Source: a virus (lineage: Duplodnaviria > Heunggongvirae > Uroviricota > Caudoviricetes). Taken from it: a DNA stretch of 64,000 nt. The notes beneath the pieces were generated by a model, which was not told the DNA's origin, did no database searches, and saw only the letters and a program-made list of their open reading frames with translations. This document shows, piece after piece, positions 31,455 through 60,009 of this stretch; within the stretch, counting starts at the first letter, position 1, and each line of letters begins with the position of its first letter. The DNA lies in IMG/VR virus record IMGVR_UViG_3300035680_000003, one strand, 5' to 3'. Position numbers and translations under genes: made by a program.

Positions 31455-31637
31455 TCATTGTGTACTATTTAATCGATCAATCTCATCGGCTGCTTCTTCT
31501 AACAAATCTGCAATACGGTCTGGCGTGCCTTCCTGTACTGATTTACGGTCTTTGATCTGTCTGCGAATCTCTGCTCGCTTGCGTAGGCGGAATATAAGAC
31601 TCTGTTCACTTACTGGTAAATGACTTTCGTCTTTCAT
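31455..31637 (-). CDS. hypothetical protein
   Basis: 60-aa ORF. Confidence 0.25.
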   Translation of the reverse strand: MKDESHLPVSEQSLIFRLRKRAEIRRQIKDRKSVQEGTPDRIADLLEEAADEIDRLNSTQ

Positions 31638-32018: not shown

Positions 32019-32816
32019 TTACTTAGGCATCATCAATGCATTGAAGTTGCTTGGAACAACAATGGTCTGTACTTGTCCATTCTTGATACCTTCTGAGATA
32101 TTCAACATGGCTTGTGCCTGCATGAATGCAATACTAGCACCTGAGTTATTTGCAAGTGCTGCCATACGACGGCTTTCAGCTTCGGCAGTCTTAACTTCAA
32201 CTTCCTTCTGCTTGAGTTCGTTCTTACTACGAACCAATGCGTTAGCCGACTCAACAACAGTATCACTTGGCAGTACATTACGAATCATAACCTGACTGAT
32301 CATAATGGAACCGTCCAACTTTTCTTCAGAAAGGTTGCGAACAATTTCTTCCTTAATGTAGTTTTCCATGTCAGTGCGGTTGTCTGCCATATCCAATGCT
32401 TCGTACTTTCGTGCGGCTTTGTAGATAGCATTACGAGCATTCTGAACCACATAGTTGTACATCACATAAGTGTCACCTTTGAATTCAGCGTGGAACGATT
32501 TGTTCTTGGTTGAATAAAGTTCGGCAACATTCTGTGAATTGATGTTGTAAACAACTACAGCATCGAAGTCTTTCATGGTTGAGTTGTCCTTGGCCACCGG
32601 AGTCATATTCTCCAAGACCACGTTAACATCCTTGACCGGGAATGTAAGCACATCACCGATGAATGTCTGATTGAACGAACCAGGCAACAACTCACCTGGT
32701 TGTACCTGTTTATCAAAACCAACTCGCACACCGACCTCACCAGTCTCAATACGAGTACAAGCACTAGTTAGAGCAACTGCGGTCAAAACCAAACCAACTT
32801 TAATAAAACGCATCAT
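32019..32816 (-). CDS. SPFH / band-7 (prohibitin-stomatin) family lipoprotein
   Basis: signal plus lipobox LVLTAVALTSAC, then an SPFH core and a coiled-coil C-terminus (KNELKQKEVEVKTAEAESRR). Confidence 0.65.
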   Translation of the reverse strand: MMRFIKVGLVLTAVALTSACTRIETGEVGVRVGFDKQVQPGELLPGSFNQTFIGDVLTFPVKDVNVVLENMTPVAKDNSTMKDFDAVVVYNINSQNVAELYSTKNKSFHAEFKGDTYVMYNYVVQNARNAIYKAARKYEALDMADNRTDMENYIKEEIVRNLSEEKLDGSIMISQVMIRNVLPSDTVVESANALVRSKNELKQKEVEVKTAEAESRRMAALANNSGASIAFMQAQAMLNISEGIKNGQVQTIVVPSNFNALMMPK

Positions 32817-33093: not shown

Positions 33094-34173
33094 TTATCCT
33101 TTAGTTGGGAAAGGCCAATCACTGCCTTGTGCCCTAAACACAGTTCCAGGAGGTGGTGTCACCTTACCATCAGTATTGCGAGTCCAACCAGTTGGTTGCA
33201 CATAACGATACCGTGCTGGATCACCGTTTTCGCGATCTTCCACACCGGCCTCGTATCCAACGTCATATGCATTGTGTTCTCTGGAACCATAGTTGTATGA
33301 ATTGCTATAGTCTGCACCAGAGAAGCCGTCACTATAACCACGCTTATGGATACTTGAACCGACTCGGACTTCTGGCGCAGGCTTAGCCGCACGTACAGTT
33401 TCAGTACTGTTGGCATTGCTCTGTACAGGCTTGTCAAAAGCATCCCTTGCTTCACCGCCCATTTCACCAATAACTTCATATCGGCAAGCACGACCCTTGG
33501 CACCATTGTAGTCACTTGGGATTGAAACAACATCAGCTGGATCAATCTTAACAATTACCACACGGCTGTCATTACCACCAAAGTGGTCCAAGTAACTCAA
33601 ACCGCAGAAGTGGAGACCAGTACTGCAAGTTTGATCCTTGTTGTCGTCAACAGCGTTGCGTTCCATTTCGACAACAGTACCCGGGCTATTGTCCATAGTA
33701 CCACTGTGAATGTCTTTGAAGTCTCGGCGTACTTTCTTGTAGGCAAGGAAGTAACCATCGGGAGTGATGGGCAAACTGTTCTTTTCCAAGAAGCCATAGA
33801 GTTCATCTACTGAACGCTTTGAAGGGTTCTTCATCAAGTTGTGCATGAACAGAACCATTGGCTCAATAGTAAAGCCATCCTGCAACATGGTAATCATACG
33901 GCTTGCCAATACACCTGCAAAAGGTTGTCCTTTCCAGAACAGTTGTTCGCCTTTGACAGAGATGTTGCCAGCACCGTAGTTCAGCACAACCTTGACTGGG
34001 TCAATAATGTTTTTAACAGTGTCCCAGTCTTGTGCTTTAATAGCATCAACTACCTTTTGGTAAGTGACGTGGGTCTTAGAAATCGTATGTGGTTTGCCGT
34101 CAATAACGACAGTAACATTCGAACCTTGAAGAATAAACGGATAACTCATTTTAAATACCTTTCTTTGCATCAA
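33094..34173 (-). CDS. rIIB: rIIB-like protein (positional call)
   Basis: 359-aa ORF immediately downstream of and overlapping the rIIA stop, matching the T4 rIIA-rIIB arrangement; no independent motif. Confidence 0.45.
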   Translation of the reverse strand: MMQRKVFKMSYPFILQGSNVTVVIDGKPHTISKTHVTYQKVVDAIKAQDWDTVKNIIDPVKVVLNYGAGNISVKGEQLFWKGQPFAGVLASRMITMLQDGFTIEPMVLFMHNLMKNPSKRSVDELYGFLEKNSLPITPDGYFLAYKKVRRDFKDIHSGTMDNSPGTVVEMERNAVDDNKDQTCSTGLHFCGLSYLDHFGGNDSRVVIVKIDPADVVSIPSDYNGAKGRACRYEVIGEMGGEARDAFDKPVQSNANSTETVRAAKPAPEVRVGSSIHKRGYSDGFSGADYSNSYNYGSREHNAYDVGYEAGVEDRENGDPARYRYVQPTGWTRNTDGKVTPPPGTVFRAQGSDWPFPTKG

Positions 34174-36328
34174 TTAAATTTACATACTCGGCAATATCGC
34201 TTGCCTCTACGCGGTAAGTACTCAAACTAGTCAACAACGGATAACGGCTGTTAACTGTGTTGAGTTCTGTTTGATACTTGGTCACAAGTGCTTCTGGGCT
34301 AAGGTTAGCTGTAGGAGCAAACTTGCGGAACAGTCTATCAATATTGTAGCGGTTTCCTGTGAACTTGTCAACCTTTACAAACACTGAAACCAGTTTAGCG
34401 TAAGGACTGTTGGCATCAATTTCAGCCAAAATATCTTTATTGTGGATGCCGTTGATAACATCGGCCCCCTCTAATGCACTCTTAACCAAACTCATCAACA
34501 GTTTGGAATTGTCCTTAGCAGCCAACTGATCAACAATGTGTTCTTCAAAGTTCTTCCAGTTTGGCTTCTTCTTGATATCTTCAATGTCGCTCTTACGTAC
34601 ACCGTAGATCTCACCGTTGAACAAATTGTGCAAGCTCTTGACATCTTCATGCATGTCCTTACCGCTAGTATAGCCTTTGGCACTTAGCATTGTGAAGCCG
34701 CTCAATGGTACATAGTAGTAGGTTTCTGTAGTGACAAACTTGCTAGTATCGCCTGCGGCACGCCAGACCATATCTTGCTCATCACGACGATAGCCACCGC
34801 CACCACGACGTTCCAACTTGAGAATTGAAACGTTCTTACCCATGTTCTCACGTTCACGTTGCTTCAAGGTACTTGCGACAAAGCGACGAGCAAGCGGAGG
34901 TTCTTGGATAGCGGCAAAGAAAGACTTGGTATCCATGTCCTTAGTCTTGTCTGCCTTTTCCAAAATCCAGATAGCACGGCTGTAAACATCGCAACCAGTT
35001 TCACGATAGTGATAACGAGCACGTTCGCCGGCACCGGTCTTTAAATCATTGATGATGAAGTGACTGGCGTCATCAACCTGCACATGCCATTCTTGCCAAG
35101 TGATGTAATGTCCGGCAGCATTTTTTGCATGTCCGGGAGCGTACTCTGTAGTGCTCTTACCAGTGGTCACAGCCTTGTTATGACGAGTCTGATGCAACTG
35201 TCGAATCTGGATGTTATAGTTAGCAGCCAGGTCCTCTACTTTAAACTCAAACCGCTTCAAACGGTTGTACTGTTTGTCGTCATAAGTAGGCAAAGCAGTG
35301 TCTTGAGCATACTTGCTCACAGCCGCGGTCCACAGTCGATGCTCTTTCTTCTTGAACAAGAACACAGCACGATCCCACAGGTTCTCAATAGCATCTGCTT
35401 CCTTGGCAATGACCACAGTCAACGCCGCATTGACTGCTTCCAATTTACGTTTGATAGCCGCAACAGTTGATGGGATGTAACTGAGGCCTTCGCGGCTGGC
35501 TTGGAAGTCCAGTTCGCCAATACCAAAGTGCATTTCCAAACCGCAGATCAACAACTGCTTCAACTCAGGCGGAATAGATCCGTCAGCGTTAGGCACCTCG
35601 ATAGGATAAGCAATATTGCCCATAATGGCTGCACTGTTACTGCGATCCTTGAAACTATGCACACCGGGAACAATGTCGCGGCTTTCGTACTCAGCATCAA
35701 CAAACTGGAAATCGGAACTGCCAGAAACAACCGGACGGAGAGCAAAGTGTTTGTAGACAACTCGAGCTTCTTGTCGGAACTTGTCAAAGTCGTAACGATC
35801 GTTGACGGAAAACTTAACTTCAACACCAGCAGGCTCGTCTGTAGCTTCCTGCATCATCAAGGCAATGCTGGGCACGCCTTCCCCGTTGATAAAAGCTGAG
35901 TAGATACCCTTAACGCCGTTTTGGATAGCAGTCACAGTGAAGTTGTCAGTGTAGCTGAACGGACTCTTTGAACCCAACCCCAGCGCACCAATAAACTCGT
36001 TGGAGTTTGTTTTAGTACTTTCAAAGTAAGTGGTGTAGATTTGGGTAACTTGCTGATGACTCAAGCCAGTGCCGTAGTCACGGATGGCAAAGTGCGGCTC
36101 CAATGTGTTGGGCAAATGCACATCAAACGGAGTGTCTTTCTTACCTGCGGCTGCATGGCTGTCCACAGCATTGCAACTCAATTCGCGGATGATAGCACGG
36201 ATCTTGTTAGCATACAAGCCCGAACTCAAAATGCTGAACGCTTTGGCAGAATTGCGAATACGGAACTCGCCAATTTCTGCTACGTTAGAAACAATAGCTT
36301 CGTTAACTGGAGCATTGTTGAGAATCAT
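34151..36328 (-). CDS. rIIA: rIIA-like protein with N-terminal GHKL (HATPase_c) ATPase fold
   Basis: IRELSCNAVDSHA (N-box ExxxNAxD) and IRDYGTGLS (G1 box DxGxG); length 725 aa equals T4 rIIA. Confidence 0.7.
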   Translation of the reverse strand: MILNNAPVNEAIVSNVAEIGEFRIRNSAKAFSILSSGLYANKIRAIIRELSCNAVDSHAAAGKKDTPFDVHLPNTLEPHFAIRDYGTGLSHQQVTQIYTTYFESTKTNSNEFIGALGLGSKSPFSYTDNFTVTAIQNGVKGIYSAFINGEGVPSIALMMQEATDEPAGVEVKFSVNDRYDFDKFRQEARVVYKHFALRPVVSGSSDFQFVDAEYESRDIVPGVHSFKDRSNSAAIMGNIAYPIEVPNADGSIPPELKQLLICGLEMHFGIGELDFQASREGLSYIPSTVAAIKRKLEAVNAALTVVIAKEADAIENLWDRAVFLFKKKEHRLWTAAVSKYAQDTALPTYDDKQYNRLKRFEFKVEDLAANYNIQIRQLHQTRHNKAVTTGKSTTEYAPGHAKNAAGHYITWQEWHVQVDDASHFIINDLKTGAGERARYHYRETGCDVYSRAIWILEKADKTKDMDTKSFFAAIQEPPLARRFVASTLKQRERENMGKNVSILKLERRGGGGYRRDEQDMVWRAAGDTSKFVTTETYYYVPLSGFTMLSAKGYTSGKDMHEDVKSLHNLFNGEIYGVRKSDIEDIKKKPNWKNFEEHIVDQLAAKDNSKLLMSLVKSALEGADVINGIHNKDILAEIDANSPYAKLVSVFVKVDKFTGNRYNIDRLFRKFAPTANLSPEALVTKYQTELNTVNSRYPLLTSLSTYRVEASDIAEYVNLIDAKKGI

Positions 36329-36366
36329 GTAAAACCTTTCAGTAGTGTGTTTGTCTGTATGTATAT

Positions 36367-36395
36367 ATTATACAAGAAAAAACCAACCCTGTCAA
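36367..36395 (-). promoter_or_regulatory. perfect sigma70 consensus promoter (TTGACA-17-TATAAT) upstream of rIIA; -35 sits in a hairpin loop
   Basis: minus strand ccaactcTTGACAgggttggttttttcttgTATAAT; the stem CCAAC/GTTGG plus T-run also looks like a terminator. Confidence 0.6.
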
Positions 36396-36412
36396 GAGTT
36401 GGTTTGTCCAAA

Positions 36413-36616
36413 TTATCTACCCACTGCAATCAATCGAATTCGTAATGCGTTCAAACTTGACTGGATGGTCATAAGTTCTGCCAACGCCTTAGTGTAGTGA
36501 CCGTTAGGATGTTTATCATGTCCCAGTTTACGATCTACGCCTAGAGCCATTTTTACACTGGCAATGGCTGTGTCAACTGCTTCAATTCTTGCTTCGAGTT
36601 TTTCTAAATCTGTCAT
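36413..36616 (-). CDS. hypothetical protein
   Basis: 67-aa ORF. Confidence 0.3.
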   Translation of the reverse strand: MTDLEKLEARIEAVDTAIASVKMALGVDRKLGHDKHPNGHYTKALAELMTIQSSLNALRIRLIAVGR

Positions 36617-36822
36617 TTTCTTTTTCCAATCTTGTCTACAACATCGGCCTTGCTCTGTAGCAGTTGGGCACGGAAGCGACGATAAACTCGCAGTGAAGCG
36701 ACACTCATAGGATCTTCCTTGCCCTCCAACTCTGCTATCTTAGCATCCAGTTCGGCTTCGTGGGCACGATGACGTTCGACATCTGCCTTGAGCCCTTTCG
36801 CATCACCCCAGAAGAATTTCAT
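36613..36822 (-). CDS. hypothetical protein
   Basis: 69-aa ORF. Confidence 0.3.
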   Translation of the reverse strand: MKFFWGDAKGLKADVERHRAHEAELDAKIAELEGKEDPMSVASLRVYRRFRAQLLQSKADVVDKIGKRK

Positions 36823-36823
36823 A

Positions 36824-37117
36824 TCATCCCCACTTTAAAATAAAGAACACAGCGTCCTTTTCGTTTTTAAATCTATACTCAAAGGGTCCAGTACTCCAGC
36901 GAGGATTATTATATCCTTCGTTTCTGTGTCCGAAATACTTTGAGCACCATGCCATCATCTCATCCTTTTCTTCCCACCAATCACCGCCTGAATAATACAC
37001 AGTGTATTTCTGGGGAGCAAGTTCTTCTCGAACCCGCAGTTCTAAACTACGGGGCCGTTTAGTAAACCAGTTCATAGGAGTATGCGGATAAAAACTATTA
37101 ACGTCTAAATCAATCAT
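36824..37117 (-). CDS. hypothetical protein
   Basis: 97-aa ORF. Confidence 0.3.
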   Translation of the reverse strand: MIDLDVNSFYPHTPMNWFTKRPRSLELRVREELAPQKYTVYYSGGDWWEEKDEMMAWCSKYFGHRNEGYNNPRWSTGPFEYRFKNEKDAVFFILKWG

Positions 37118-37650
37118 ACACCTACGAACCGGCTGGCTTCGGCGTGCAACCCTGCGTCACCCTTGGTCATCACAGCCAACAACAATCTCTTTTCCTCCAA
37201 GTAGGTCTTGGCGAAAGCAGGATCGTGAGCCATGATGCTACGGCTGTTGCTGATCAAATCTGCCAACTTGATGGTCTGTGCTTCGGCGGGCGCTCTTGCA
37301 GTATGCTCACGGTCTATTGCCTTGCGGTGGGCACGATTGCCATCATGCGGTTGGCTAACATCAGTCAACCATCCAACCAAGGTAGCAACATCGATACCAA
37401 AGGCCATGTGGATGTCAGTGTATGTGCAACCAGTGTCTTCCACAACATCATGCAACCAAGCAGCCGCAACCATATCAGGAGTGCTACCCGGAACGCCTGC
37501 TACGATCTTGGCAACTTCAGCCGGGTGGACAATGTAGGGTTCGTTAGTGTACTTACGCCTCTGTCCAACTGCGGCGTGAGCAGCCATGGCATAGACTTGC
37601 GCCTTACGGACTACATCAAATCCGCTGAGATCCATTGTAAAATCTTCCAT
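37114..37650 (-). CDS. HD-domain phosphohydrolase, RelA/SpoT-hydrolase (Mesh1 / small alarmone hydrolase)-like
   Basis: YIVHPAEVA...AAWLHDVVEDT...TIKLADLISN parallels the SpoT HD domain (YITHPLEVA, LLHDVIEDT, KLADRLHN); the gene looks GC-richer than its neighbours. Confidence 0.6.
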   Translation of the reverse strand: MEDFTMDLSGFDVVRKAQVYAMAAHAAVGQRRKYTNEPYIVHPAEVAKIVAGVPGSTPDMVAAAWLHDVVEDTGCTYTDIHMAFGIDVATLVGWLTDVSQPHDGNRAHRKAIDREHTARAPAEAQTIKLADLISNSRSIMAHDPAFAKTYLEEKRLLLAVMTKGDAGLHAEASRFVGV

Positions 37651-37676
37651 GCTGCTCTCCTTGTTAATAAGTATAT

Positions 37677-37705
37677 ATTATAGCATGGATTTACCATGCT
37701 GTCAA
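37677..37705 (-). promoter_or_regulatory. perfect sigma70 consensus promoter (TTGACA-17-TATAAT) upstream of the HD hydrolase gene
   Basis: minus strand TTGACAgcatggtaaatccatgcTATAAT; the spacer is an inverted repeat GCATGG..CCATGC. Confidence 0.65.
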
Positions 37706-37932
37706 CCGGAAGTTTTAACCACTTCCAGGATGGTAATTTCTACTACTAAATGCTTACGCAGTAGCATGAACTTTTTGAACTTGGCTTCTATGTCCGCCTG
37801 AATGTACTCGTCATGGTAAGGCATAGTAGCAACGTCCTCATAGGGTTCATCGTTTTCGTTTAACGCTATGAAACTGAGCTTCACTGTGCCCTGTTCGGGC
37901 TCTTTGAACATTTTAACAAATTTGTTGAACAT
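37702..37932 (-). CDS. hypothetical protein
   Basis: 76-aa ORF. Confidence 0.3.
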   Translation of the reverse strand: MFNKFVKMFKEPEQGTVKLSFIALNENDEPYEDVATMPYHDEYIQADIEAKFKKFMLLRKHLVVEITILEVVKTSG

Positions 37933-37940
37933 GCAAATAT

Positions 37941-38486
37941 TTAGTGATGCCCTTTAATTTCGTTATCTTTAATCATACGAACTGCCCGATCCATGGAGAT
38001 TACAATTTCCCCAGTTGAGTCCATACCCACATCCATGCAACGATATTTTTCCATGCCTGTAGTGCCACCGTGCAAGTGACCGTGAAAGTGCAGAGAACCA
38101 CGATGCATCTGATCCCATTCATAGATAGGATAGTGAAACATCACGCACTTGTGGCCATCATAGGTGATATCCAAATACTTATGTACTTCAACAAATGCAT
38201 CGCGGAATGTTACATCCATTAGGGTCTTGCGGTCATGGTTGCCTTCTACAAGGATCTTATCTCCGTTCAACCGATTCATCATTCGTCCAGCATCACTTCC
38301 TGACATAAACGCTACATCGCCTAAGATGTAGACTAAATCACCCGGCTCTACTTTGTCGTTCCATTCTTCCGCCATTGCGTTATTCATATAAGCAACATCG
38401 TCACGAAATCGTGCCCGTGTTTGCGGACAGAACTTCATAATGTTCTTGTGCCCGAAATGGAGATCCGAAGTAATCCAAGTTTTCAT
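37941..38486 (-). CDS. calcineurin-like metallophosphoesterase
   Basis: SDLHFGH, ILGDVAF, GNHD and HFHGHLH motifs. Confidence 0.8.
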   Translation of the reverse strand: MKTWITSDLHFGHKNIMKFCPQTRARFRDDVAYMNNAMAEEWNDKVEPGDLVYILGDVAFMSGSDAGRMMNRLNGDKILVEGNHDRKTLMDVTFRDAFVEVHKYLDITYDGHKCVMFHYPIYEWDQMHRGSLHFHGHLHGGTTGMEKYRCMDVGMDSTGEIVISMDRAVRMIKDNEIKGHH

Positions 38487-38496
38487 ATTATTTCCT

Positions 38497-38525
38497 ATTA
38501 TACAGCCAGTGACCTATACCGTCAA
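38497..38525 (-). promoter_or_regulatory. sigma70-like promoter (TTGACG-17-TATAAT) upstream of the metallophosphoesterase gene
   Basis: minus strand TTGACGgtataggtcactggctgTATAAT. Confidence 0.55.
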
Positions 38526-38986
38526 CTGGCATACCAAATTTCTTTAAACCCTTCTTCCTCAGTGGGCTCTTCCCAACTGGCAATCATGCTGGCAATAACA
38601 TGATCCGGAATCTCTTTGCCAGGGCGGCTCATCAATCGGCGCATAAGTTCTTTGTGTTCAGGTGTCTTAAACACTATTGCAATATGCTCATAGTCAGGTA
38701 ACATGTTAAACTTGCGAGTACGACTTGCAAGAGTAGTACTAGTTTGATCCCAGATAATATCTCGATTCATTTCACGAGCCGCAACAACTTCCTTGGCCAT
38801 AAGGTCTACAGCAGTGGGCATAAAGTCTACAAACACTTCGCTGTAGGTGCGTCCTACTTCCTTTGCGTAGATTTCAACCCACTTGTCTGTGCTAATACAA
38901 GAGCAGGTCAACGCCCAGTCTTGTTCAGCCACCCAAGTACTTTTACCTGAACCAGGCACTCCAATCAATTGATAACATTTTGCCAT
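38522..38986 (-). CDS. polynucleotide kinase-like P-loop kinase (kinase domain only)
   Basis: LIGVPGSGKSTWVAEQ closely matches the T4 Pnk N-terminus (TIGCPGSGKSTWAREF); IIWDQTSTT matches the DxT region. Confidence 0.6.
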   Translation of the reverse strand: MAKCYQLIGVPGSGKSTWVAEQDWALTCSCISTDKWVEIYAKEVGRTYSEVFVDFMPTAVDLMAKEVVAAREMNRDIIWDQTSTTLASRTRKFNMLPDYEHIAIVFKTPEHKELMRRLMSRPGKEIPDHVIASMIASWEEPTEEEGFKEIWYAS

Positions 38987-39454
38987 TTAATCTACACTCC
39001 TAAAAGTTCGCCAATCGTCTATGTTTGGCTTTTCATCTTCATCATATGTCCAACCCAAAGCCTTCATCATGCGATGCTTGACCAATAGGTTGGGGCTACG
39101 GAATCTACCTGTGTCTTCAAAGCCCATCATAACACCAACTTCGCAAACTGCACCACTGCGGCAAATACCCGCATAGCAGTGAACAACTACATTCATACGG
39201 TTGTCCTTTGCGTGTTGCAACAGTCGAACAAGCTCGTTAGCCTGCTCTTGACTACATTTCATTGCTTCTTCCAACACTTCGTCCTTGGCCTCTACGTCCA
39301 AAAACTCAAAGTTGTGTTGCTCTTTAAACTTGTGAGCAGGCACAGGGCGCCAGCTGGCCGGATCAACAATGCTGATCAGCATACTGTTCTCACCTGCCTC
39401 ATGATGAAACCTTGTGGGTATATCAGCGGCCGCTACGTTTTCAATCCATGGCAT
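38987..39454 (-). CDS. Cys-based protein/RNA phosphatase (dual-specificity PTP fold)
   Basis: VVHCYAGICRSGAV carries the HCx5R(S/T) P-loop. Confidence 0.7.
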   Translation of the reverse strand: MPWIENVAAADIPTRFHHEAGENSMLISIVDPASWRPVPAHKFKEQHNFEFLDVEAKDEVLEEAMKCSQEQANELVRLLQHAKDNRMNVVVHCYAGICRSGAVCEVGVMMGFEDTGRFRSPNLLVKHRMMKALGWTYDEDEKPNIDDWRTFRSVD

Positions 39455-39518: not shown

Positions 39519-39735
39519 TGTTATGTCCACCCAAAAAACTCGCCTAGAAAAAAAAGCTGACGATATATTTGAGTTGCTGGATCATTATGTTTATCCCACA
39601 ACGGGCGAAACACTGGCAGCTCAAAAGGGTTTGATGGTAGGCTGGTTAGCTAGACTGGCAACTACTGACTGGACAGTTGCAGAAGAATTAGAAAGACGAT
39701 TACATCTTGCTCGGAAACAAAAAGGTAAAATTTGA
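39519..39735 (+). CDS. hypothetical protein (short form of track ORF 39412..39735)
   Basis: the internal Met avoids overlap with the phosphatase gene and its promoter. Confidence 0.25.
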
Positions 39736-39771: not shown

Positions 39772-40323
39772 ATGAGATGTTTCTATAAATTAAAAATTAA
39801 TAATCTAGAATCTATACAGGCACACGCATTATCTAAAATATCTGAAGAAGATCTTAATTTGATGCCAACTAGATTATTTTATCCAGAATATAATTTTTTA
39901 GATGATCAAGATCTCTTATGTGCGTTAAATCAATACGGGTTGACAAATTATATACATAATGTTGCTCTTTTTGTTCTCAATTCAGGAGGCATAAGCCCTA
40001 TTCATGTCGACGGGGATAATGACTATAATTGGAGTTTAAATATACCTTTAAAAAATTGCAGATATACTCGAACTAATTTTTATCAATCTAATGAGGTTCC
40101 TGTTAAGAAAAAAAGTCCAAACAGTGATATAGAATACAGTATCTTTGATCCAAACTCTTGCACACTACTAGATTCTCTTCGATTATCTGATCCATTTTTA
40201 ATGAATGTGTCAGTTCCTCACAGCATATCTAATCTTACTTTTACAACAAGAGTTTCTATATGTATAAGAATAAAATCTACATTTGACATAGAAGCCGCTC
40301 TGTCAGAATGGGATTTAAAATAA
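39772..40323 (+). CDS. 2OG-Fe(II) oxygenase-fold protein, paralog family member 1
   Basis: PIHVDGDND (HxD) ... VPHSISNLTFTTRVS (H-x10-RxS). Confidence 0.5.
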   Translation: MRCFYKLKINNLESIQAHALSKISEEDLNLMPTRLFYPEYNFLDDQDLLCALNQYGLTNYIHNVALFVLNSGGISPIHVDGDNDYNWSLNIPLKNCRYTRTNFYQSNEVPVKKKSPNSDIEYSIFDPNSCTLLDSLRLSDPFLMNVSVPHSISNLTFTTRVSICIRIKSTFDIEAALSEWDLK

Positions 40324-40330
40324 CGAATTT

Positions 40331-40870
40331 CTACATAATAAATTTTTCAAATCTACTTAATGCATCCTGCCATTTGAAATATTTCGAATTGTGTAATGAT
40401 ACTTTTATACTAACACACCATCGAGGTGACGTTATATTTGATACGTTATGAGGAACACCGCTTTGAAATAAACACGCCCCTTGTAAGTTTACGGATTCGA
40501 TTAACTGCATTTTATCAATTTCGTAGTCTCTTTTCCAAGCTACACCATTGTGTTTCGGTAGTCCTGGATACTTATTAATTGATCTGTACCAGTTAACTAG
40601 ACTATCATTTGCATTTATATAAAAATTTAAATTTGTTTGATCGTAAACGTTATAGTTGTCTATATGAATCGGGGAAGACGTGCTTTCCCCACTATAATAA
40701 ATTATTAGGCCGTTTAGTCGAAAATCATCAATTTTCTTTAACAGTTCTAGCATATCTGGACTTAATATTTCTGTTATATGAGCAGTACCTAATTTCCATT
40801 GTTTTTCGCATACAAAAGATTCGCTAAGAAACGGTACAGGAAATGACAGTTTTTTAAAATAATCGCTCAT
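40331..40870 (-). CDS. 2OG-Fe(II) oxygenase-fold protein, paralog 2
   Basis: SPIHIDNYN ... GVPHNVSNITSPRW. Confidence 0.5.
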   Translation of the reverse strand: MSDYFKKLSFPVPFLSESFVCEKQWKLGTAHITEILSPDMLELLKKIDDFRLNGLIIYYSGESTSSPIHIDNYNVYDQTNLNFYINANDSLVNWYRSINKYPGLPKHNGVAWKRDYEIDKMQLIESVNLQGACLFQSGVPHNVSNITSPRWCVSIKVSLHNSKYFKWQDALSRFEKFIM

Positions 40871-40933
40871 TCAAATATTTACCACCTAATTATTAATCGA
40901 GCTTTCTAGGAGTAATAAGAGCAGATAAATATT

Positions 40934-41500
40934 TTGATGAAATATTATAAAAAAATAGAAATTGAAAACTTAGAGGTAATACAGAAAAAAGTTTTACAAT
41001 TTATTAAATTTAAACACCCCACTATATATTTTAGAAAAGTTGAGTCATCTTGGAACCATCTCGATGTTCCGAGTTTGTTGGCGGCATGCCCAGAACTTTC
41101 TGAGTCTTTCGGCAAATTGAATTTATCCTGCATTTTTGCGTCAATTCATATAATGTATGATAATACACATTCTGCTATACATACTGATATTACGCCCTGG
41201 AAAGCTAGAATTAACATTCCTATTTTAAATTGCAACGGAACATTTACTAAATTTTATACAGGTGAAAAGGTAGTAGAAGAAATTAGGACCATGGCAAATA
41301 ATAAAACGTTTAAGGTAGATGCAATTATAAATCCACTTGAATGTATTGAAGTAGACGCATACGAATTAACACAGCCGTTAATTCTTAAAACTTATATACC
41401 ACATAGGGTTTTTATGAATGAAACTTCGAGACCTAGAATAGCATTGTCAATTGGCTGCGATCCTGATCCATTCTATCAATATTTTTCGTCAGACGAATAA
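40934..41500 (+). CDS. 2OG-Fe(II) oxygenase-fold protein, paralog 3
   Basis: SAIHTDITP ... IPHRVFMNETSRPR. Confidence 0.5.
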   Translation: MMKYYKKIEIENLEVIQKKVLQFIKFKHPTIYFRKVESSWNHLDVPSLLAACPELSESFGKLNLSCIFASIHIMYDNTHSAIHTDITPWKARINIPILNCNGTFTKFYTGEKVVEEIRTMANNKTFKVDAIINPLECIEVDAYELTQPLILKTYIPHRVFMNETSRPRIALSIGCDPDPFYQYFSSDE

Positions 41501-42067
41501 ATCTGTAGTATCCACTACATCTTCAATATTTCTAAATTTAATAGGATGTAGTCCCCATCGCACGGTAAACATTATCCTTATATCATCATTAAAATTTTTA
41601 ACACCATGCATGACATCACCTTTAACAAAACAAGGCTTTGTTATCTCAAGGTCTTCGATAATTTCTAATTTAGAATTGTCTATAGGAGTTAGACCATGCA
41701 GGTAACTGCTTTGTACGGCACCCATGACTAGATTTTCTTTTGGACAATGATACCATAACATTTTTGTATTATGACAATTTAATACAGGAATATTTAATCC
41801 AAACGGTACTGTAATGAATGAACTATCAACATGAGGAGCTAGCTCAGCATGCCCCGGTGTAAAATAAAACCTAAGTAATCGAATTTGACTTTTACTCCTC
41901 GACTTTAGCCACCTCATTAATTTTGGACAATGTTCAGTCATATGCTCTTCACTGAACGTACATGCATGTAGGCCTTTAGATGCATAATCATAATTAATAG
42001 ATTTAATTAATTCGTGTTGAATCTCTTCAAAGTTGGGGATATGGATGTATCTATAAAGTTCTTGCAT
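41489..42067 (-). CDS. 2OG-Fe(II) oxygenase-fold protein, paralog 4
   Basis: APHVDSS ... VMHGVKNFNDDIR. Confidence 0.45.
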   Translation of the reverse strand: MQELYRYIHIPNFEEIQHELIKSINYDYASKGLHACTFSEEHMTEHCPKLMRWLKSRSKSQIRLLRFYFTPGHAELAPHVDSSFITVPFGLNIPVLNCHNTKMLWYHCPKENLVMGAVQSSYLHGLTPIDNSKLEIIEDLEITKPCFVKGDVMHGVKNFNDDIRIMFTVRWGLHPIKFRNIEDVVDTTDLFV

Positions 42068-42733
42068 ACTTCCAAATATTTAGTAATAAATACTTTACAA
42101 ACTTTAAAAATTATGCTACCTTCTATAACATTAAACCCTGATGATTATTATTATGCACTTAATCAGCCCTGTACAATCTTACCTCAACTATTAGAATATG
42201 TTCAAAGTGTAGAAGACTGGGAGGGATTAGATTGGCATACATTTTATTTAGATGTACCAAATAGGACTGCTTGTAATTTCGAATCAGATCCTGTAATTAA
42301 ATTTTTTCTAGATCAGGGATGGAGGTTAAACTTCACATGTATGCCCCCTAAGGGGCATTATCGATGGCATATCGATAATCAAGGAAATAGACAAACCGCA
42401 ATAAATTTAGCACTAAATGGTTTTGAAACAACTAAAGTTATGTGGCGACCAAATAGACCGTACGTGCGAAAAATGAATACAGAAATTATGGATATTCCCT
42501 ACACACCTGGTACGTATTTTGTATTTAATACACAAGAGGAACATTGTGTAACTAATTTCAGTAATGAAAATAGATATCTATTAAGCATTACACCAGATAA
42601 AAGATTTGCTGTTCCTGAGTATTTTGACGGAATTTATAAAAATGTAAGTCCTAGTCGATACGCTGAAATTCTAAAAGGTTACAAGCTAGCATTTAAAGAG
42701 GTCGTTAGCGAAGTTAAAGCACAAGGTTGGTAG
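42014..42733 (+). CDS. 2OG-Fe(II) oxygenase-fold protein, paralog 5
   Basis: WHIDNQGN ... EEHCVTNFSNENRY. Confidence 0.45.
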   Translation: MLNLFKVGDMDVSIKFLHTSKYLVINTLQTLKIMLPSITLNPDDYYYALNQPCTILPQLLEYVQSVEDWEGLDWHTFYLDVPNRTACNFESDPVIKFFLDQGWRLNFTCMPPKGHYRWHIDNQGNRQTAINLALNGFETTKVMWRPNRPYVRKMNTEIMDIPYTPGTYFVFNTQEEHCVTNFSNENRYLLSITPDKRFAVPEYFDGIYKNVSPSRYAEILKGYKLAFKEVVSEVKAQGW

Positions 42734-42745
42734 TAGATTTTAAAT

Positions 42746-43354
42746 TCAGTCTTTCCATCTAATAGTATTCCAATCAAACATAAAATTTAAGTTAAGTTGT
42801 TCGTACGCTATCCATTGTTTAGTGTACTGAATATTAAGAGGAAAATCAATTACATTAAAATTATTATAAAATAGATGATGTAATTGTCTAGGTGATCGAG
42901 TTTCACCTAATCTTTTTCTTTTAAATGTTTCTATCAAATTTTTATTATAGTCATTAAATGTGATAGCAATAGCTTTACAATTATTGTCTATTGCCCATTG
43001 TTTGTGCATTGGTAAAAAAAGTTCTCTAGGTAATCCTAAATGTCGGTAATCTTTTGTAACCCATGTTCTACATCCGCCTATGGCAACTTCATTGGAGAAT
43101 TCACTTCTATAAACTCCCGAACAGGCTACAATAGTTTCATTTTTTATCGCTAAGTGAAACGCTCCACTGGTTTCAAAATATCGATGCCTGTTGTATATTT
43201 GATGTATTAGTGTGTTAGATTTAGTATGCCAATCTTCTACCCACATATTGCTGTGTGCTAGCTGAGTAATTTCTTCTGATGCCTCTTGACAAAATTTAAA
43301 AAATAAACTTTTATCCTCTAACTCGTCATACCGAATAAGTGTTAGATCAGACAT
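42746..43354 (-). CDS. putative GNAT-fold acyltransferase
   Basis: IVACSGV...AIGGCRTWVTKDYRHLGLPRELF looks like GNAT motif A and CoA-binding core; weak. Confidence 0.3.
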   Translation of the reverse strand: MSDLTLIRYDELEDKSLFFKFCQEASEEITQLAHSNMWVEDWHTKSNTLIHQIYNRHRYFETSGAFHLAIKNETIVACSGVYRSEFSNEVAIGGCRTWVTKDYRHLGLPRELFLPMHKQWAIDNNCKAIAITFNDYNKNLIETFKRKRLGETRSPRQLHHLFYNNFNVIDFPLNIQYTKQWIAYEQLNLNFMFDWNTIRWKD

Positions 43355-43895
43355 TGCTAACTAAATCTTCAAAATTTGGATTACCGTGAAATCTCATAGT
43401 AAATACCCACCGATCTTCGAGTTGATTTGATTGTGCTGAATGCGGACAATCTACTCTTAATAGATGAGGGCTGTCAATTTCTAATTTAAAATCTTCTGTA
43501 TATGGTTCTTGCCACATAATTTCATGATAAACGTTGTTGGATAACATTACAAGAGATGTGCTGTATTTTCCTTTATACCAAATTTGGTAACTGTTTTTAC
43601 AACCTTTCAACGGAATGTTTATTGCAGATTTTATAATACCTTCTTCATTACCGTCTATATGAATACCTTGAAAACTATTCTTTGGTCTAATATAACTTAG
43701 ACAATAGCGAACAGGAGGTATATTATACCTAGCTAGGTCTGCATCAATTATATGCTTTAATTGATTGTTGAGCTCGTGTCTTATTTGTATTTGTCTATCT
43801 ACAGGAATTGAAGTATCTATCTTTTTCTCTATATCTAAAATTGCAAATTCTTTTATAAGATGTTCGCATGTTAAATGAATTTTTTTACAGTACAC
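43347..43895 (-). CDS. 2OG-Fe(II) oxygenase-fold protein, paralog 6
   Basis: GIHIDGNEEG ... CPHSAQSNQLEDRW. Confidence 0.5.
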   Translation of the reverse strand: MYCKKIHLTCEHLIKEFAILDIEKKIDTSIPVDRQIQIRHELNNQLKHIIDADLARYNIPPVRYCLSYIRPKNSFQGIHIDGNEEGIIKSAINIPLKGCKNSYQIWYKGKYSTSLVMLSNNVYHEIMWQEPYTEDFKLEIDSPHLLRVDCPHSAQSNQLEDRWVFTMRFHGNPNFEDLVSNV

Positions 43896-43960
43896 GATGT
43901 TTATCGTAAAATTTTGGAATATCTTTTATTTAACTCTCTGCAATTTTGTAATATAAATAT

Positions 43961-44587
43961 ATGAAACATATTATGATAGTAGCCACACCACTTAACCTTC
44001 CTACTGTAGTCCCTGACGATTGGTCTGTATTTTGGAATATTTGGAACAATTATGGAAAACCTATAGTTAAAACGCAACAAAACCATAAGGGATCTTATTC
44101 AAAAATTGGAGATACAGATGTCTGGAAAGGTTTAGATATCTATAAAAATAATTTATTTCGATCTGCATGGACTGCACCTTACTATGATATTCGAGAAGAA
44201 CTTCCCTTAATGTATCAAATGATTACAAAAATTCCTCTATTCTCTCTTGTCACTGGTGTTAGGGTTGTAGAAAGCCTAGGAAATATTCCGCCACACACTG
44301 ATGATAATATAGATCGATGGAACGTTAGAGCAATGTTGCATTATACTGATTCGAACCCTCAATGGTTTTTTACTAAACCGAATGATACAAAAACTGCTGT
44401 GTTGTTAACATTGCCAGAGTCCACTAATTGGTTTGCATATAACGATAAGTACACATGGCATGGGTCGAAGTATAACCCGGATCACCCTAAATTATTAATT
44501 CAAATGTTTGGAGTAGGATTTAAGAACAGTCAGTTCCTACAAAAAAGTGCAGAAATGTACAAAGAATATACAATATCATATGACTAA
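43961..44587 (+). CDS. 2OG-Fe(II) oxygenase-fold protein, paralog 7 (divergent)
   Basis: PPHTDDNID ... TWHGSKYNPDHPK. Confidence 0.4.
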   Translation: MKHIMIVATPLNLPTVVPDDWSVFWNIWNNYGKPIVKTQQNHKGSYSKIGDTDVWKGLDIYKNNLFRSAWTAPYYDIREELPLMYQMITKIPLFSLVTGVRVVESLGNIPPHTDDNIDRWNVRAMLHYTDSNPQWFFTKPNDTKTAVLLTLPESTNWFAYNDKYTWHGSKYNPDHPKLLIQMFGVGFKNSQFLQKSAEMYKEYTISYD

Positions 44588-45368
44588 TTTATTTCAAGCT
44601 AGTTCAACTACTGTTAGGTATTCTCATATTGTAGCAAGGTTAGCAATTATTATAGGTGCATTCTTTGTAACATTTAATTTACCCTTATTACTTGTGTCTG
44701 CTATTGCATATCATGTTTTACTATCTATCGGTATAAGCATAATGATGCATAGATACTTCAGCCATAAAAGTTTTGAATTTAAAAATAATATTGTCAGAAA
44801 AGTTTTTATTATAATTTCATTGCTTTCGTTGCGAGGAAGTCCAATAGCTTGGGCATACATCCATCGAGCACATCACGAACACGTAGATACCGAAGATGAT
44901 CCGCATACTCCTGTTGGTAGAAAATTTAACTTTTTTGGATTACTTGACAACAAAAATAAAGCTGATGATATTCAGATATTTAAAATTAGATCTATGATGA
45001 CCAAGGAGCACCTATTTATTAATCAATACTATTGGTTGATCTTAGCATGTTTGTTAGTACCTTTTGCATTTATTAATTTTACATTATTTTATTATACATG
45101 GCTAGTTCCTGTAGTTCTTGTACAATTTTCTATTAATTTACAAAACTATTTAGGACATATGTCAGGTATAGGTGCGTATAGGACTTACACTAATCCATCT
45201 AGCGGCAATAGTCAAAATAGTTTGTTATTGTGGCCTTTATATTTAGGTGAAGCGTGGCATAACAACCACCATGCACATGCTCGACATTATCACTACGGAA
45301 CTGAAATAAGTGGAAAGTGGTGGGAGATCGATCCCGGTGCAATGCTCATTAAGTTACTGAAAAAATGA
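44547..45368 (+). CDS. membrane acyl-lipid/acyl-CoA delta9-desaturase-like di-iron enzyme (DesC/SCD family)
   Basis: three His boxes HRYFSH, HRAHHEH and GEAWHNNHHAHARHY (compare HRLWSH, HRxHH and HNNHH); four hydrophobic segments. Confidence 0.75.
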   Translation: MQKCTKNIQYHMTNLFQASSTTVRYSHIVARLAIIIGAFFVTFNLPLLLVSAIAYHVLLSIGISIMMHRYFSHKSFEFKNNIVRKVFIIISLLSLRGSPIAWAYIHRAHHEHVDTEDDPHTPVGRKFNFFGLLDNKNKADDIQIFKIRSMMTKEHLFINQYYWLILACLLVPFAFINFTLFYYTWLVPVVLVQFSINLQNYLGHMSGIGAYRTYTNPSSGNSQNSLLLWPLYLGEAWHNNHHAHARHYHYGTEISGKWWEIDPGAMLIKLLKK

Positions 45369-45925
45369 TACGATTTTTAACAATGGATGACTTGCCGGAT
45401 TGCATGAAAATTGCACCATTAAAAAATAGAACCGGTGGCACTGTTCCATTAACACTCGAAGGATTTTTAGGTGCCTTTGAAAAATATTTCCAGGATGATG
45501 AATTTTGCCGTGTGATTGGATACTTTGAAAATAATGAACTTGTTAGTTTTGTATGTATCAGAATGTTCGAAACTACGATGAGAGGAAAATTTTGGGTTAT
45601 TTCGGGATTATATACTAAGAATTTTAAAAGTTATTTTAGCTTTAACCATTCAGGAATAGGCGAATTAATTAAATTTGCATTCGATTATGCTGAATCACGA
45701 GGTTGGTATGAATATTATTATTGCACTGCCGAACGTGTAATAAATGTATATGAAAGACAATGGAAACGATCACACTCTCATAGATACGAACATATATTGT
45801 TAGACGTTGTTCCACCTAATACAAAACCATTTTATGAATTGCACTGGAGACTAATGGGGCAAGAAGTTAAACCTGTCCCAATGATTGTTAAAAAGCGAGC
45901 GTTAAAACAAGAATTTAGAAAATAA
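45365..45925 (+). CDS. putative GNAT-fold acyltransferase (second)
   Basis: VSFVCIR...GIGELIKFAFDYAESRGWYEYY resembles the GNAT core; weak. Confidence 0.3.
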   Translation: MIRFLTMDDLPDCMKIAPLKNRTGGTVPLTLEGFLGAFEKYFQDDEFCRVIGYFENNELVSFVCIRMFETTMRGKFWVISGLYTKNFKSYFSFNHSGIGELIKFAFDYAESRGWYEYYYCTAERVINVYERQWKRSHSHRYEHILLDVVPPNTKPFYELHWRLMGQEVKPVPMIVKKRALKQEFRK

Positions 45926-45971
45926 AAATCAGTTATTTTATCCTATAAATATAATGCTCATAGGAAACTAA

Positions 45972-46748
45972 ATGAACACAGCATTTTTATCTAGCAGCAC
46001 TAGGGGTGCTCAACTATTCTTGATATTAAATTTAATAGGTACTTTCGGTGCTGTCTGGTTGTACGGATTAAATTTTAATTCTTTTATGATGGTACTAGTG
46101 GGATACTTTTTATATGGTTGTTTAGGTATCGTCGTAACTTATCACAGAAATCTTTCTCACAATAGTTATAGAACACATCCGATCATTGTAAAGATATTTT
46201 CATTATTAGGATGCTTTGCAGGGACCGGCAGTCCACTTGCATGGGTGGCCATTCATATCAATCATCACTTAAAGAGTGACAAGCCTACTGATCCGCATAG
46301 TCCGTTATACAAAGGGGTAAAGATCTTTATGATGGATTATATAAATGAAGTTGATAAAGATACAAAATGGAGAATGAGGGCATTAGTCACTGACAGATTC
46401 CAGCAATTCCTACATAGATATTATTTTGCAATCATTGCAACCTATAGCCTTGTACTATTTTTAATAGGAGGATTTTGGTTGATGGTATTTTTTCATTGGG
46501 CGCCTGCTGCAATGACCGCCCTTATGAGTAATGTTGTTAATTATGTGGGACACAAACCAAGTTGGTGGGGTGGATATAGAACACACAATCTAAATGATCA
46601 AAGTACAAATAATTGGCTATGGGCTATTCCTAGTTGGGGGGAAGCGTGGCACAACAATCATCATAGATATCCTAGGAATTTTAGTTTTGGAAACAAGTGG
46701 TGGGAGATTGATATTTCGGCACTTGTAATTAGATTGATTAAAATTTAA
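45972..46748 (+). CDS. membrane delta9-desaturase-like di-iron enzyme (second copy)
   Basis: HRNLSH, HINHHLKSD and GEAWHNNHHRYPRNF His boxes; paralog of 44547..45368. Confidence 0.75.
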   Translation: MNTAFLSSSTRGAQLFLILNLIGTFGAVWLYGLNFNSFMMVLVGYFLYGCLGIVVTYHRNLSHNSYRTHPIIVKIFSLLGCFAGTGSPLAWVAIHINHHLKSDKPTDPHSPLYKGVKIFMMDYINEVDKDTKWRMRALVTDRFQQFLHRYYFAIIATYSLVLFLIGGFWLMVFFHWAPAAMTALMSNVVNYVGHKPSWWGGYRTHNLNDQSTNNWLWAIPSWGEAWHNNHHRYPRNFSFGNKWWEIDISALVIRLIKI

Positions 46749-49681: not shown

Positions 49682-49699
49682 GATATATAAATATTCTTT

Positions 49700-51795: not shown

Positions 51796-51844
51796 TTATC
51801 TAGGTAGAGTTAAATTAACATTTTTACAAAATTAGAACTAACAA

Positions 51845-53590: not shown

Positions 53591-53622
53591 TGTAAGAGTA
53601 ATGTGCGTATATAAATAGTTGT

Positions 53623-57314: not shown

Positions 57315-57320
57315 AGAAAA

Positions 57321-59061: not shown

Positions 59062-59167
<106 letters not shown>

Positions 59168-59308
59168 TTATCTTGTGAATTTTCTTACTAGTTTTAGCCA
59201 GTAGTATTTAACTCCGCGGAATGATGGAGGCCAATCCATTCCGAAACTAGGAGTTATTTCTTTTGGGACATTACCGTATGCTTTGTCAAGCGTTTCTTTT
59301 ACTTTCAT
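59168..59308 (-). CDS. small ORF (46 aa) with strong Shine-Dalgarno, abutting tRNA-Gly
   Basis: hand translation MKVKETLDKAYGNVPKEITPSFGMDWPPSFRGVKYYWLKLVRKFTR; AAAGGAG sits 6 nt upstream of the ATG. Confidence 0.3.
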   Translation of the reverse strand: MKVKETLDKAYGNVPKEITPSFGMDWPPSFRGVKYYWLKLVRKFTR

Positions 59309-59919: not shown

Positions 59920-59926
59920 ATTTAAA

Positions 59927-60002: not shown

Positions 60003-60009
60003 AAAAATA

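Follow-up and report, generated by a model that had tools for sequence, protein, structure and literature searches.

A conserved phage gene cassette that combines predicted RNA end-healing enzymes with a predicted small alarmone hydrolase

Organization of the locus

The genes described here lie together on the minus strand of a 64,000-nucleotide stretch of DNA (IMG/VR virus record IMGVR_UViG_3300035680_000003), which was analyzed as a whole and is called the window. The source is an uncultured large phage. IMG/VR contains close relatives of the genes on hundreds of contigs, the longest of 383 kb, and a megablast search with the locus returned no nucleotide-level matches among cultured phages. 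The first gene, CYS (38987-39454), encodes a stand-alone Cys-phosphatase of 155 amino acids predicted to adopt the dual-specificity-phosphatase (DSP) fold. It is followed by KIN (38522-38986), whose 154-amino-acid product is a predicted stand-alone P-loop kinase of the polynucleotide 5'-kinase type, and by MPE (37941-38486), which encodes a binuclear metallophosphoesterase of the aq_1665/phrog_547 family (181 amino acids). The last enzyme gene, HD (37114-37650), encodes a putative RelA/SpoT-type small alarmone hydrolase (SAH) of 178 amino acids that resembles PaSpo.

An earlier interpretation based on the letters of the window, here called the sequence-only reading, described these as four consecutive minus-strand genes. 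The four open reading frames (ORFs) are real and their coordinates were exact, but a fifth gene was overlooked. This gene, s76 (37702-37932), is a conserved 76-amino-acid ORF between MPE and HD that lies 8 nucleotides past MPE. It is present in about 20 related loci at 56-96% identity and matched no Pfam or PHROG family.

Three consensus sigma-70 promoters, all on the minus strand, drive the block. P1 (39478-39506; TTGACA-17-TGcTATAAT, 12/12 consensus positions) precedes CYS, whose ATG follows an AGGAG Shine-Dalgarno sequence, and drives both CYS and KIN, which abut as TAA ATG. P2 (38497-38525; TTGACG-17-TATAAT, 11/12) overlaps the KIN stop codon and precedes MPE. Because only 10 nucleotides separate the end of its -10 element from the MPE ATG, a transcript starting at P2 would have almost no leader; read-through from P1 would keep an AGGA Shine-Dalgarno sequence for MPE. 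P3 (37677-37705; TTGACA-17-TGcTATAAT, 12/12) overlaps the s76 stop codon and drives HD together with three small conserved ORFs of 97, 69 and 67 amino acids (36413-37117, minus strand), whose stops and starts overlap or abut. A terminator-like hairpin with a T-run (36380-36405, minus strand) closes this unit, and its loop overlaps the -35 element of a fourth consensus promoter (36367-36395, minus strand), which precedes rIIA. These positions define three units: CYS-KIN from P1, MPE-s76 from P2, and HD with the three small ORFs from P3 to the hairpin. The array that had been treated as a single set is therefore five genes in three transcription units.

The pattern TTGAC-N18-TATAAT occurs eight times in the window against an expectation of 0.09. 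In relatives, a consensus promoter is found upstream of HD in 70% of cases, of CYS in 24% and of MPE in 15%, compared with 2.6% of random 120-nucleotide windows. For CYS, the share of relatives with a promoter within 120 nucleotides upstream ranges from 24% (strict) to 39%, against a background of 2.6-7.3%. Consensus promoters seldom precede KIN or the ligase gene described below. The claim that each gene has or shares a consensus promoter thus holds, and the promoter positions are kept in relatives.

A predicted polynucleotide kinase

KIN matches the Pfam family AAA_33 (2.5e-17) and, as a single sequence, gives weak matches to bacterial Pnkp, PSTK and Pnkp1. A profile built from nine phage orthologues was more informative when searched against the PDB. 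It matched PSTK (6e-15), Pnkp1 (1.6e-13) and T4 Pnk (1.5e-12), followed by the kinase of Clostridium thermocellum Pnkp (CthPnk; 1e-11) and mammalian PNKP (1e-10). The best small-molecule kinase scored 4e-5, at least a million-fold worse than PSTK, Pnkp1, T4 Pnk and CthPnk, and on this wide gap we rejected a gluconate, shikimate or nucleotide kinase. To judge from sequence, KIN belongs to the polynucleotide/tRNA kinase clade and not to the small-molecule kinases, in agreement with the PNK-like label given to it before.

The Walker A motif GVPGSGKSTW, which the sequence-only reading had picked out, occupies residues 9-18, and G9, P11, G14 and K15 are invariant in the nine orthologues. An invariant D34, within S-T-D, aligns in the HMMER alignment with D35 of T4 Pnk, the catalytic Asp that activates the 5'-OH (the CthPnk equivalent is D38). 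R117 and R121, also invariant, fall on the T4 segment RNSKRGTKAVP, where the lid arginines (RxxxR) that contact the NTP phosphates are found. The Arg that lies three residues past the catalytic Asp and binds the acceptor phosphate (R38 in T4, R41 in CthPnk) is not conserved, being V37 in KIN. The orthologue consensus at this place is S-T-D-x-x-x-E, and PSTK-like relatives likewise differ at the Arg position. At 154 amino acids KIN is a kinase domain only, with no DxDxT HAD, and it does differ from the T4 kinase-HAD fusion as proposed.

Orthologues of KIN in cultured phages share 33-40% identity with it, and several stand among RNA-repair genes. The orthologue is directly downstream of a PF09511 Rnl1 ligase gene in Caulobacter phage Cr30, DSS3_MAL1, Rhizobium phage RHph_I1_18 and Synechococcus phage BUCT-ZZ01, and the RHph_I1_18 locus also holds a CCA-transferase, a Thg1-like enzyme and tRNAs. 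In XacN1 and RAS14 the orthologue is followed by Hen1 and a PNKP_ligase protein. The orthologue in Campylobacter phage CP21 is fused to an HD domain, and in Sinorhizobium phage phiN3 it lies at most 4 kb from two further genes, one a homologue of MPE (31% identity, 2e-13) and the other an HD_4 homologue.

The metallophosphoesterase

The motifs SDLHFGH, LGD, GNHD, FHY and GHLHG can be read directly in MPE, which bears out its description as a calcineurin-like metallophosphoesterase. The protein matches phrog_547 (2e-51) and no Pfam family. In the PDB it matches 1xm7, the Aquifex protein aq_1665 (annotated as a hypothetical protein), at 5e-9 alone and 1.4e-21 with a profile. The profile finds no other chain below E 0.1, and MPE thus resembles Pnkp only as a member of the same superfamily. 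The notion that KIN and MPE recreate the Pnkp domain pair in trans is thus right in that both kinds of domain are present, and needs correction as to the family of the phosphoesterase.

Two variants of MPE occur in the cassettes of related phages, about 35% identical and with all catalytic motifs kept (for example, L057 5399-6031 compared with 37941-38486 of the window). Residues D8-H10, G56-D57, G82-N83-H84-D85, H118 and G136-H137-x-H139 are invariant across both types and phiN3 gp389. A few loci, such as L153, carry duplicated, mirrored CYS-MPE pairs.

Homologues of MPE are found in more than 1400 cultured-phage records. Five distant contexts were sampled (rV5_ev156, A511, VPG01, XacN1 and CUB-A), and in three of these the homologue stands beside RNA-repair genes. 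In rV5_ev156 an Rnl1 gene is followed by a PNK gene and, immediately after that, the homologue; an RNA ligase gene lies about 1 kb upstream in Listeria phage A511, and in Vibrio phage VPG01 the ligase is two genes upstream. We infer that MPE is an end-healing enzyme acting on RNA 2',3'-cyclic phosphates or 3'-phosphates. The co-occurrence of kinase and phosphoesterase homologues outside this locus, on which the sequence-only reading depended, is real, as the two are found with each other and with RNA ligases.

The Cys-phosphatase

CYS carries the segment VVHCYAGICRSG, which is an HCX5R(S) motif (HCYAGICRS), as had been noted. Its Pfam scores lie around the gathering (GA) cut-offs: 32.4 against 33.5 for DSPc, 27.0 against 27 for Tc-R-P and 22.1 against 20.9 for Y_phosphatase. 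A match to PTP-SAK (21.6 against 27; 2.4e-4) is below the cut-off, and the name of that family hints at a related prediction. The corresponding PHROG, phrog_5614, has no annotated function. The family is abundant: clustering at 90% identity gives 3139 clusters, and at 50% there are 491 representatives. Those listed are all short, mostly 130-160 amino acids, consistent with stand-alone single-domain proteins. I27, I29, F51, D53, C93, G96, R99, S100, P121 and N122 are invariant.

An AlphaFold model of CYS (pLDDT 94) has the protein DSPs STYX, DUSP28, DUSP15 and VH1 as its nearest folds and predicts a CX5R(S/T) P-loop after a beta-strand, within a DSP fold. Modeling thus assigns CYS to a confident but divergent DSP fold. 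Given this fold, we rejected a rhodanese or MnmH-like protein, for which there was a weak NCBIfam match (0.022) and one JGI name. D53 follows the strand at 45-50, the position of the DSP general acid, and DSP topology would bring it close to the P-loop.

RNA triphosphatases of the DSP fold lack the general-acid Asp. Because CYS has an Asp, D53, at what is probably the same position, the earlier suggestion that the enzyme acts as an RNA 5'-phosphatase gains no specific support, and with protein DSPs ranked nearest to the model we have dropped it as a specific claim. The sole functional clue for CYS is its near-constant linkage to MPE, KIN and the ligase gene RNL.

The small alarmone hydrolase

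The product of HD matches HD_4 with 57.5 bits against a GA of 27.2 (1.7e-15). The only Pfam matches are to HD_4 and HD, within a single domain, and no synthetase or regulatory domain was matched in the Pfam scan. The motifs HP...LHDVVEDT...KLADL..N are present, TIGR00691 is matched at 1.6e-20, and in the PDB Mesh1 and the hydrolase domains of Rel proteins are matched at 6e-14 to 1e-10. SSU5_099, a protein of Salmonella phage SSU5, shares 47% identity with HD across 161 residues (E 5e-42). It is the SSU5 locus recovered by the search and is presumably PaSpo, the name given to the SAH of SSU5 in PMC7229694. These matches identify HD as a RelA/SpoT-type SAH of the PaSpo kind, as far as its sequence can tell. 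The HD fold had been recognized correctly; the protein is not a generic HD hydrolase, however, but a specific HD_4 SAH.

PaSpo neutralized every toxSAS tested, namely CapRel, PhRel, PhRel2, FaRel2 and FaRel (PMC7229694, Table 1), and SAH enzymes give back aminoacylation to tRNA that has been pyrophosphorylated at its CCA end (bioRxiv 10.1101/2021.04.30.441581). CapRel is a genuine defence system against phages (PMC9712102). If HD is an SAH of this kind, part of the array would target alarmones or pyrophosphorylated tRNA and not cleaved RNA ends.

The cassette in related phages

The clustering of the cassette genes exceeds chance: those present keep together on one strand in 182 of 182 unique related loci, despite many permutations of gene order. 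RNL is a ligase family of about 300 amino acids, revealed within the cassette of many relatives by tblastn of fetched IMG/VR loci with phage Rnl1 queries. Its motifs are KVNG, EGFVF and KIKSPYY; one copy matches PF09511 at 5.6e-17, and a profile of the family matches only T4 Rnl1 in the PDB (5e-9). The orders observed include CYS-MPE-RNL-f5-KIN, CYS-KIN-MPE-(s76)-HD-RNL-f5 and CYS-MPE-HD-RNL-f5-KIN, where f5 is a family of genes of about 60-76 codons that directly follow the Rnl1 ligase gene in relatives. In 23 unique loci RNL adjoins MPE, at distances of -10 to +60 bp; among the examples in which the RNL start overlaps the MPE stop is L146.

Co-occurrence was counted within 5 kb in unique IMG/VR loci with adequate flanks. 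Among 43 loci anchored on KIN, CYS is present in 95%, MPE in 95%, HD in 37% and RNL in 40%. Among 37 independently fetched loci anchored on RNL, the figures are 84% for CYS, 76% for KIN, 100% for MPE and 57% for HD. The absence of a ligase, which the sequence-only reading had made part of its picture, therefore does not hold for the cassette at large: sister phages carry an Rnl1 ligase inside it.

About 50 related loci also encode, just upstream of CYS, a protein of 470 amino acids with DUF2828, DUF7788 and a vWA-like DVSGSM motif (for example, L135 17990-19402). This protein is absent from the window. It may be a Ro60/TROVE-like RNA-binding partner.

Proposed function

The cassette, expressed early from strong host-type promoters, probably serves the phage in counter-defence and in the repair of RNA (tRNA) by undoing damage to the translation machinery, and the block would be its end-healing and damage-reversal part. 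In the order of reactions that we infer, MPE would open and remove 2',3' or 3' phosphates, the stand-alone KIN would phosphorylate the 5'-OH, and the Rnl1-type ligase, which lies within the cassette in sister phages, would seal the break. The PaSpo-type SAH might strip the 3'-pyrophosphate placed on the CCA end of tRNA by toxSAS toxins (CapRel, FaRel2, PhRel), or degrade (pp)pApp and (p)ppGpp, or do both. CYS would be a catalytically complete phosphomonoesterase of the DSP fold and the most constant partner in the cassette, possibly acting on another RNA-end phosphate. The same window holds rIIA and rIIB, 13 tRNA genes and consensus early promoters, which give this reading its context.

A split system for RNA repair or counter-defence, as first suggested for the array, is thus the best reading of these data. 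It is favored by the PNK-like character of KIN and by the co-occurrence with ligases, and has to be amended in that the SAH would not be aimed at cleaved ends. KIN might have proved to resemble small-molecule kinases, and the KIN and MPE homologues might never have been found together; instead, KIN is PNK-like, and its homologues are found in the company of MPE homologues and both in that of RNA ligases, so neither objection to the idea applies.

Several observations weigh against this interpretation. No RNA ligase was found in the window by Pfam searches of 30 ORFs of at least 230 amino acids, by PHROG searches of unannotated large ORFs, or by tblastn with the clade's own ligase (E<=10). About 60% of well-flanked KIN loci likewise lack RNL within 5 kb, so the enzymes may do a job that is independent of a ligase. 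The PDB profile search of MPE gives only 1xm7 below E 0.1, and we rejected MPE as an orthologue of the Pnkp phosphatase on this ground. The MPE homologue of XacN1 is near a peptidyl-tRNA hydrolase gene and not beside a ligase or kinase gene, and that of Staphylococcus phage CUB-A has no ligase or kinase neighbor. The RNA 5'-tri- and diphosphatase branch (baculovirus BVP, PIR1/DUSP11 and the capping-enzyme triphosphatase) is not the nearest kin of CYS, which shows no signature specific to RNA. A CYS homologue was found in one cultured phage only, BUCT-ZZ01, where it is 7 kb from the Rnl1-KIN pair; because a search of distant viral contigs, led by a 38%-identical CYS, gave essentially the same clade, the linkage of CYS outside the clade rests on this phage. 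The SAH could act on soluble alarmones alone. All of the dense synteny comes from a single broad clade of phages, and shared descent could account for part of it.

The statement that no ligase is adjacent to the array is accurate across the whole 64 kb by Pfam, PHROG and tblastn. Window tblastn searches with queries for Rnl1, Pnkp-ligase, Hen1, CCA-transferase and Thg1 (those for Hen1 and Pnkp-ligase from XacN1) also found nothing. Among the best 80 of a ligase-anchored scan of IMG/VR, the window-like contig did not appear. The ligase might be encoded elsewhere in this phage, supplied by the host, or dispensed with. Its history may be visible in the junctions of related loci. The ligase gene follows s67, the last of the small ORFs, in L093 (6331-7239) and directly precedes rIIA in L090, whereas rIIA comes right after s67 in the window (junction 36329-36412). 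An f5 homologue (31455-31637, minus strand) lies beyond rIIA, rIIB and an SPFH gene from the cassette, with no ligase gene beside it. The solitary f5 and the s67-rIIA junction suggest loss of the ligase, or a rearrangement, in the lineage of the window.

Alternative explanations

One alternative is that the block belongs to a hyper-plastic early region of unrelated accessory genes, which lie close together through common ancestry and a common neighborhood of early expression and do not form a pathway. The SAH would then act on alarmones for host takeover, MPE on cyclic-nucleotide immune signals or dinucleoside polyphosphates, and CYS on proteins, and KIN would have some unrelated role. We regard this as unlikely, although it accounts for the promoter that each gene or gene pair has of its own, for the strong shuffling of gene order, in which HD and RNL are often absent, and for the many MPE-homologue records, among the more than 1400, that have no adjacent kinase. 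Passages of PMC7824862 also propose that calcineurin-like and HD-alarmone phosphodiesterases of jumbo phages are counter-nucleotide enzymes. This reading fits poorly with a linkage that survives many permutations and is always on one strand, and the overlap of the MPE stop with the ligase start implies co-translation. Moreover, adjacency of KIN to a ligase, and of MPE to a ligase or PNK, recurs in unrelated phage families, and KIN falls clearly within the polynucleotide-kinase clade.

The other alternatives assign the enzymes different substrates. CYS, as a Tyr or Ser/Thr phosphatase, possibly with MPE acting on Ser/Thr, might erase the marks of host kinases in abortive infection or signaling, while KIN modifies a protein or metabolite. 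The nearest folds of CYS are indeed protein DSPs, its invariant Asp at the general-acid position is typical of protein and monoester DSPs, and lambda phosphatase, described in PMC2190708, is an example of a phage metallophosphoesterase with protein substrates. Yet KIN lacks the features of protein kinases and has a profile that matches PNK and PSTK, the sequence of MPE is not like that of lambda phosphatase, and the partners that stay constant among relatives are an RNA ligase and an SAH of a tRNA-active family, so a role in protein dephosphorylation seems quite improbable. Processing of DNA ends is less likely still, and very improbable. Here KIN would act on 5'-OH DNA and MPE would remove 3'-phosphates from nicked or damaged phage DNA, preparing it for a DNA ligase, for example after attack by host nucleases. 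T4 Pnkp, CthPnk and HD-Pnk do act on both DNA and RNA in vitro, according to passages of PMC6097658 (citing Munir & Shuman 2017) and PMC3902929. MPE has a weak match (1.4e-3, far below the cut-off) to PdeM, a ligase-associated DNA-damage family, and the window encodes the repair endonuclease UvdE. Against this, the cassette ligase of relatives is of the Rnl1 type and no DNA ligase, KIN orthologues sit among tRNA-repair genes (CCA-transferase, Thg1, Hen1 and tRNAs), and the SAH partner works on nucleotides or tRNA. All three alternatives are less well supported than RNA repair.

A bolder version of the RNA-repair reading is that CYS with the embedded SAH represents a form of RNA end healing not recognized before, in which CYS might, for instance, act as a 2'- or 3'-phosphatase, or strip pyrophosphate or other adducts from the CCA end of tRNA. 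The frequent cassette without a ligase would then clean tRNA ends with no need of ligation, as a counter-defence against immunity of the toxSAS type or of a similar RNA-modifying kind. This is a speculative idea that we think is probably wrong.

The cassette is very abundant in environmental viromes, with hundreds of contigs in IMG/VR and, for CYS alone, more than 3000 protein clusters. It would physically join the repair of cleaved tRNA with the reversal of tRNA pyrophosphorylation, and it offers testable functions for three uncharacterized families: phrog_547/aq_1665, phrog_5614 and the small partner ORFs. In the aq_1665-type family, a structure has been solved and no function is annotated among the matches found. 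A further puzzle is the role of the end-healing enzymes in those many genomes that have no ligase nearby.

Other features of the window

Downstream of the cassette lie rIIA (34151-36328), rIIB (33094-34173) and the SPFH (stomatin-prohibitin) gene (32019-32816). An SPFH gene is a few kilobases downstream of the HD, KIN and MPE genes in both the window and phiN3 (L157), and this may represent a conserved wider neighborhood. On the other side, an ORF of about 70 amino acids of the f30 family (39523-39735, plus strand) diverges from the CYS promoter region and is 35-72% identical to ORFs in many relatives. Immediately upstream of the cassette (39772-42067) are ORFs of 183, 179, 188 and 192 amino acids in alternating orientation, which look paralogous; those at 39772-40323 and 41489-42067 had no Pfam match. 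The ORF at 42014-42733 has a weak match to 2OG-Fe(II) oxygenases.

The 13 tRNA genes (59094-62444, minus strand) have consensus promoters at 61758-61730 and 62350-62322, and include two tRNA-Gly and two tRNA-Thr genes. The abstract of PMC11245113 reports that the toxSAS FaRel2 specifically pyrophosphorylates tRNA-Gly and tRNA-Thr; the match may be a coincidence or reflect codon usage. Inside the cluster, a 76-amino-acid ORF of the f15 family (60949-61176, minus strand) contains the segment NRFDLVLIASARVRELRRG, which resembles the RNA polymerase omega subunit by eye.

Many auxiliary metabolic genes are present in the window. An island of low GC content (40000-57500; 0.29-0.35 compared with 0.42-0.46 in the flanks) carries metabolic cargo that is unusual in a phage: fatty-acid desaturases (44547-45368 and 45972-46748), a radical-SAM protein (50263-51795), TctC/Bug-type solute receptors (48773-49681 and 55492-56388) and QueC/PP-loop-like proteins (51845-52765 and 56385-57314), as well as a nitronate-monooxygenase-like protein and a Rieske protein. 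Elsewhere (3458-8055, 10067-11095, 22311-23144 and 25074-25772) are collagen-repeat proteins, UvdE, a D-Ala-D-Ala carboxypeptidase and GTP cyclohydrolase I. One collagen-repeat protein has an Mtd_N domain and another a Peptidase_S74 intramolecular-chaperone domain, and these proteins are probable tail fibers. The GTP cyclohydrolase I and QueC-like genes hint at 7-deazaguanine chemistry.

Comparison with known systems

Phage RNA repair is known mainly through T4 Pnkp and Rnl1, which counter the PrrC anticodon nuclease, and the cassette would do the same job with a different parts list. Like the T4 enzymes, its components are phage-encoded and early, KIN shares the catalytic Asp and lid arginines, sister phages supply an Rnl1-family partner ligase, and rIIA, rIIB and tRNA genes are nearby. 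In contrast to T4 Pnkp, KIN is a stand-alone protein with no HAD, and phosphates are presumably removed by the separate MPE, possibly with CYS and the SAH. The ligase of the clade, at about 300 amino acids, also differs from T4 Rnl1 in having no Pfam match to the C-terminal domain PF20819, and the window has no ligase.

The bacterial Pnkp/Hen1 systems and the split Pnkp1-Rnl-Hen1 systems (Clostridium thermocellum, Capnocytophaga gingivalis) also heal ends with a kinase and a binuclear metallophosphoesterase (PMC2190708, PMC3675462). In the PDB, Pnkp1 is one of the chains that KIN matches best, and the XacN1 and RAS14 orthologues are beside Hen1 and PNKP_ligase genes. Bacterial Pnkp is a three-domain polypeptide, whereas the proteins here are separate and the phosphoesterase comes from the aq_1665/phrog_547 family. 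The match of KIN to TIGR04075, the bacterial Pnkp family, is 23 bits against a cut-off of 750 and covers the kinase region only, and the XacN1 tblastn queries found neither Hen1 nor a Pnkp-ligase in the window.

The pairing of an HD phosphohydrolase with a Pnk-type kinase recalls HD-Pnk of Runella slithyformis, whose gene is overlapped by a ligase ORF (PMC6097658), and the HD-kinase fusions of phages (CP21_070, phrog_6931). Here, however, HD is a separate gene of the HD_4 RelA/SpoT family and not the PF01966 2',3'-phosphoesterase HD. Like PaSpo, its product is a single-domain phage SAH, with the shared motifs RKYT-E-YI-HP, LHDVVEDT and IKLADL-N. The SAH genes of the window and its relatives stand among genes for RNA end healing and ligation, unlike SSU5_099, around which none were seen.

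The setting also resembles that of the gene sets of jumbo phages (Iyer et al. 2021, PMC7824862; Burroughs & Aravind 2016, cited there), which, in passages of the 2021 survey, include tRNA genes, ATP-grasp-type ligases, PNKs, occasional calcineurin-like or HD phosphatases and an HD-alarmone PDEase. Calcineurin-like and HD phosphoesterases accompanying PNKs and ATP-grasp-type ligases are there an acknowledged theme of RNA repair. HAD phosphatases are typical of those sets, and the same passages do not describe a near-constant Cys phosphatase of the DSP fold or a five-enzyme cassette. The themes seen here are therefore already familiar from T4, bacterial Pnkp/Hen1 and jumbo phages (PMC2190708, PMC3675462, PMC7824862), so the cassette does not constitute a new category of system, and it is the composition that is new.

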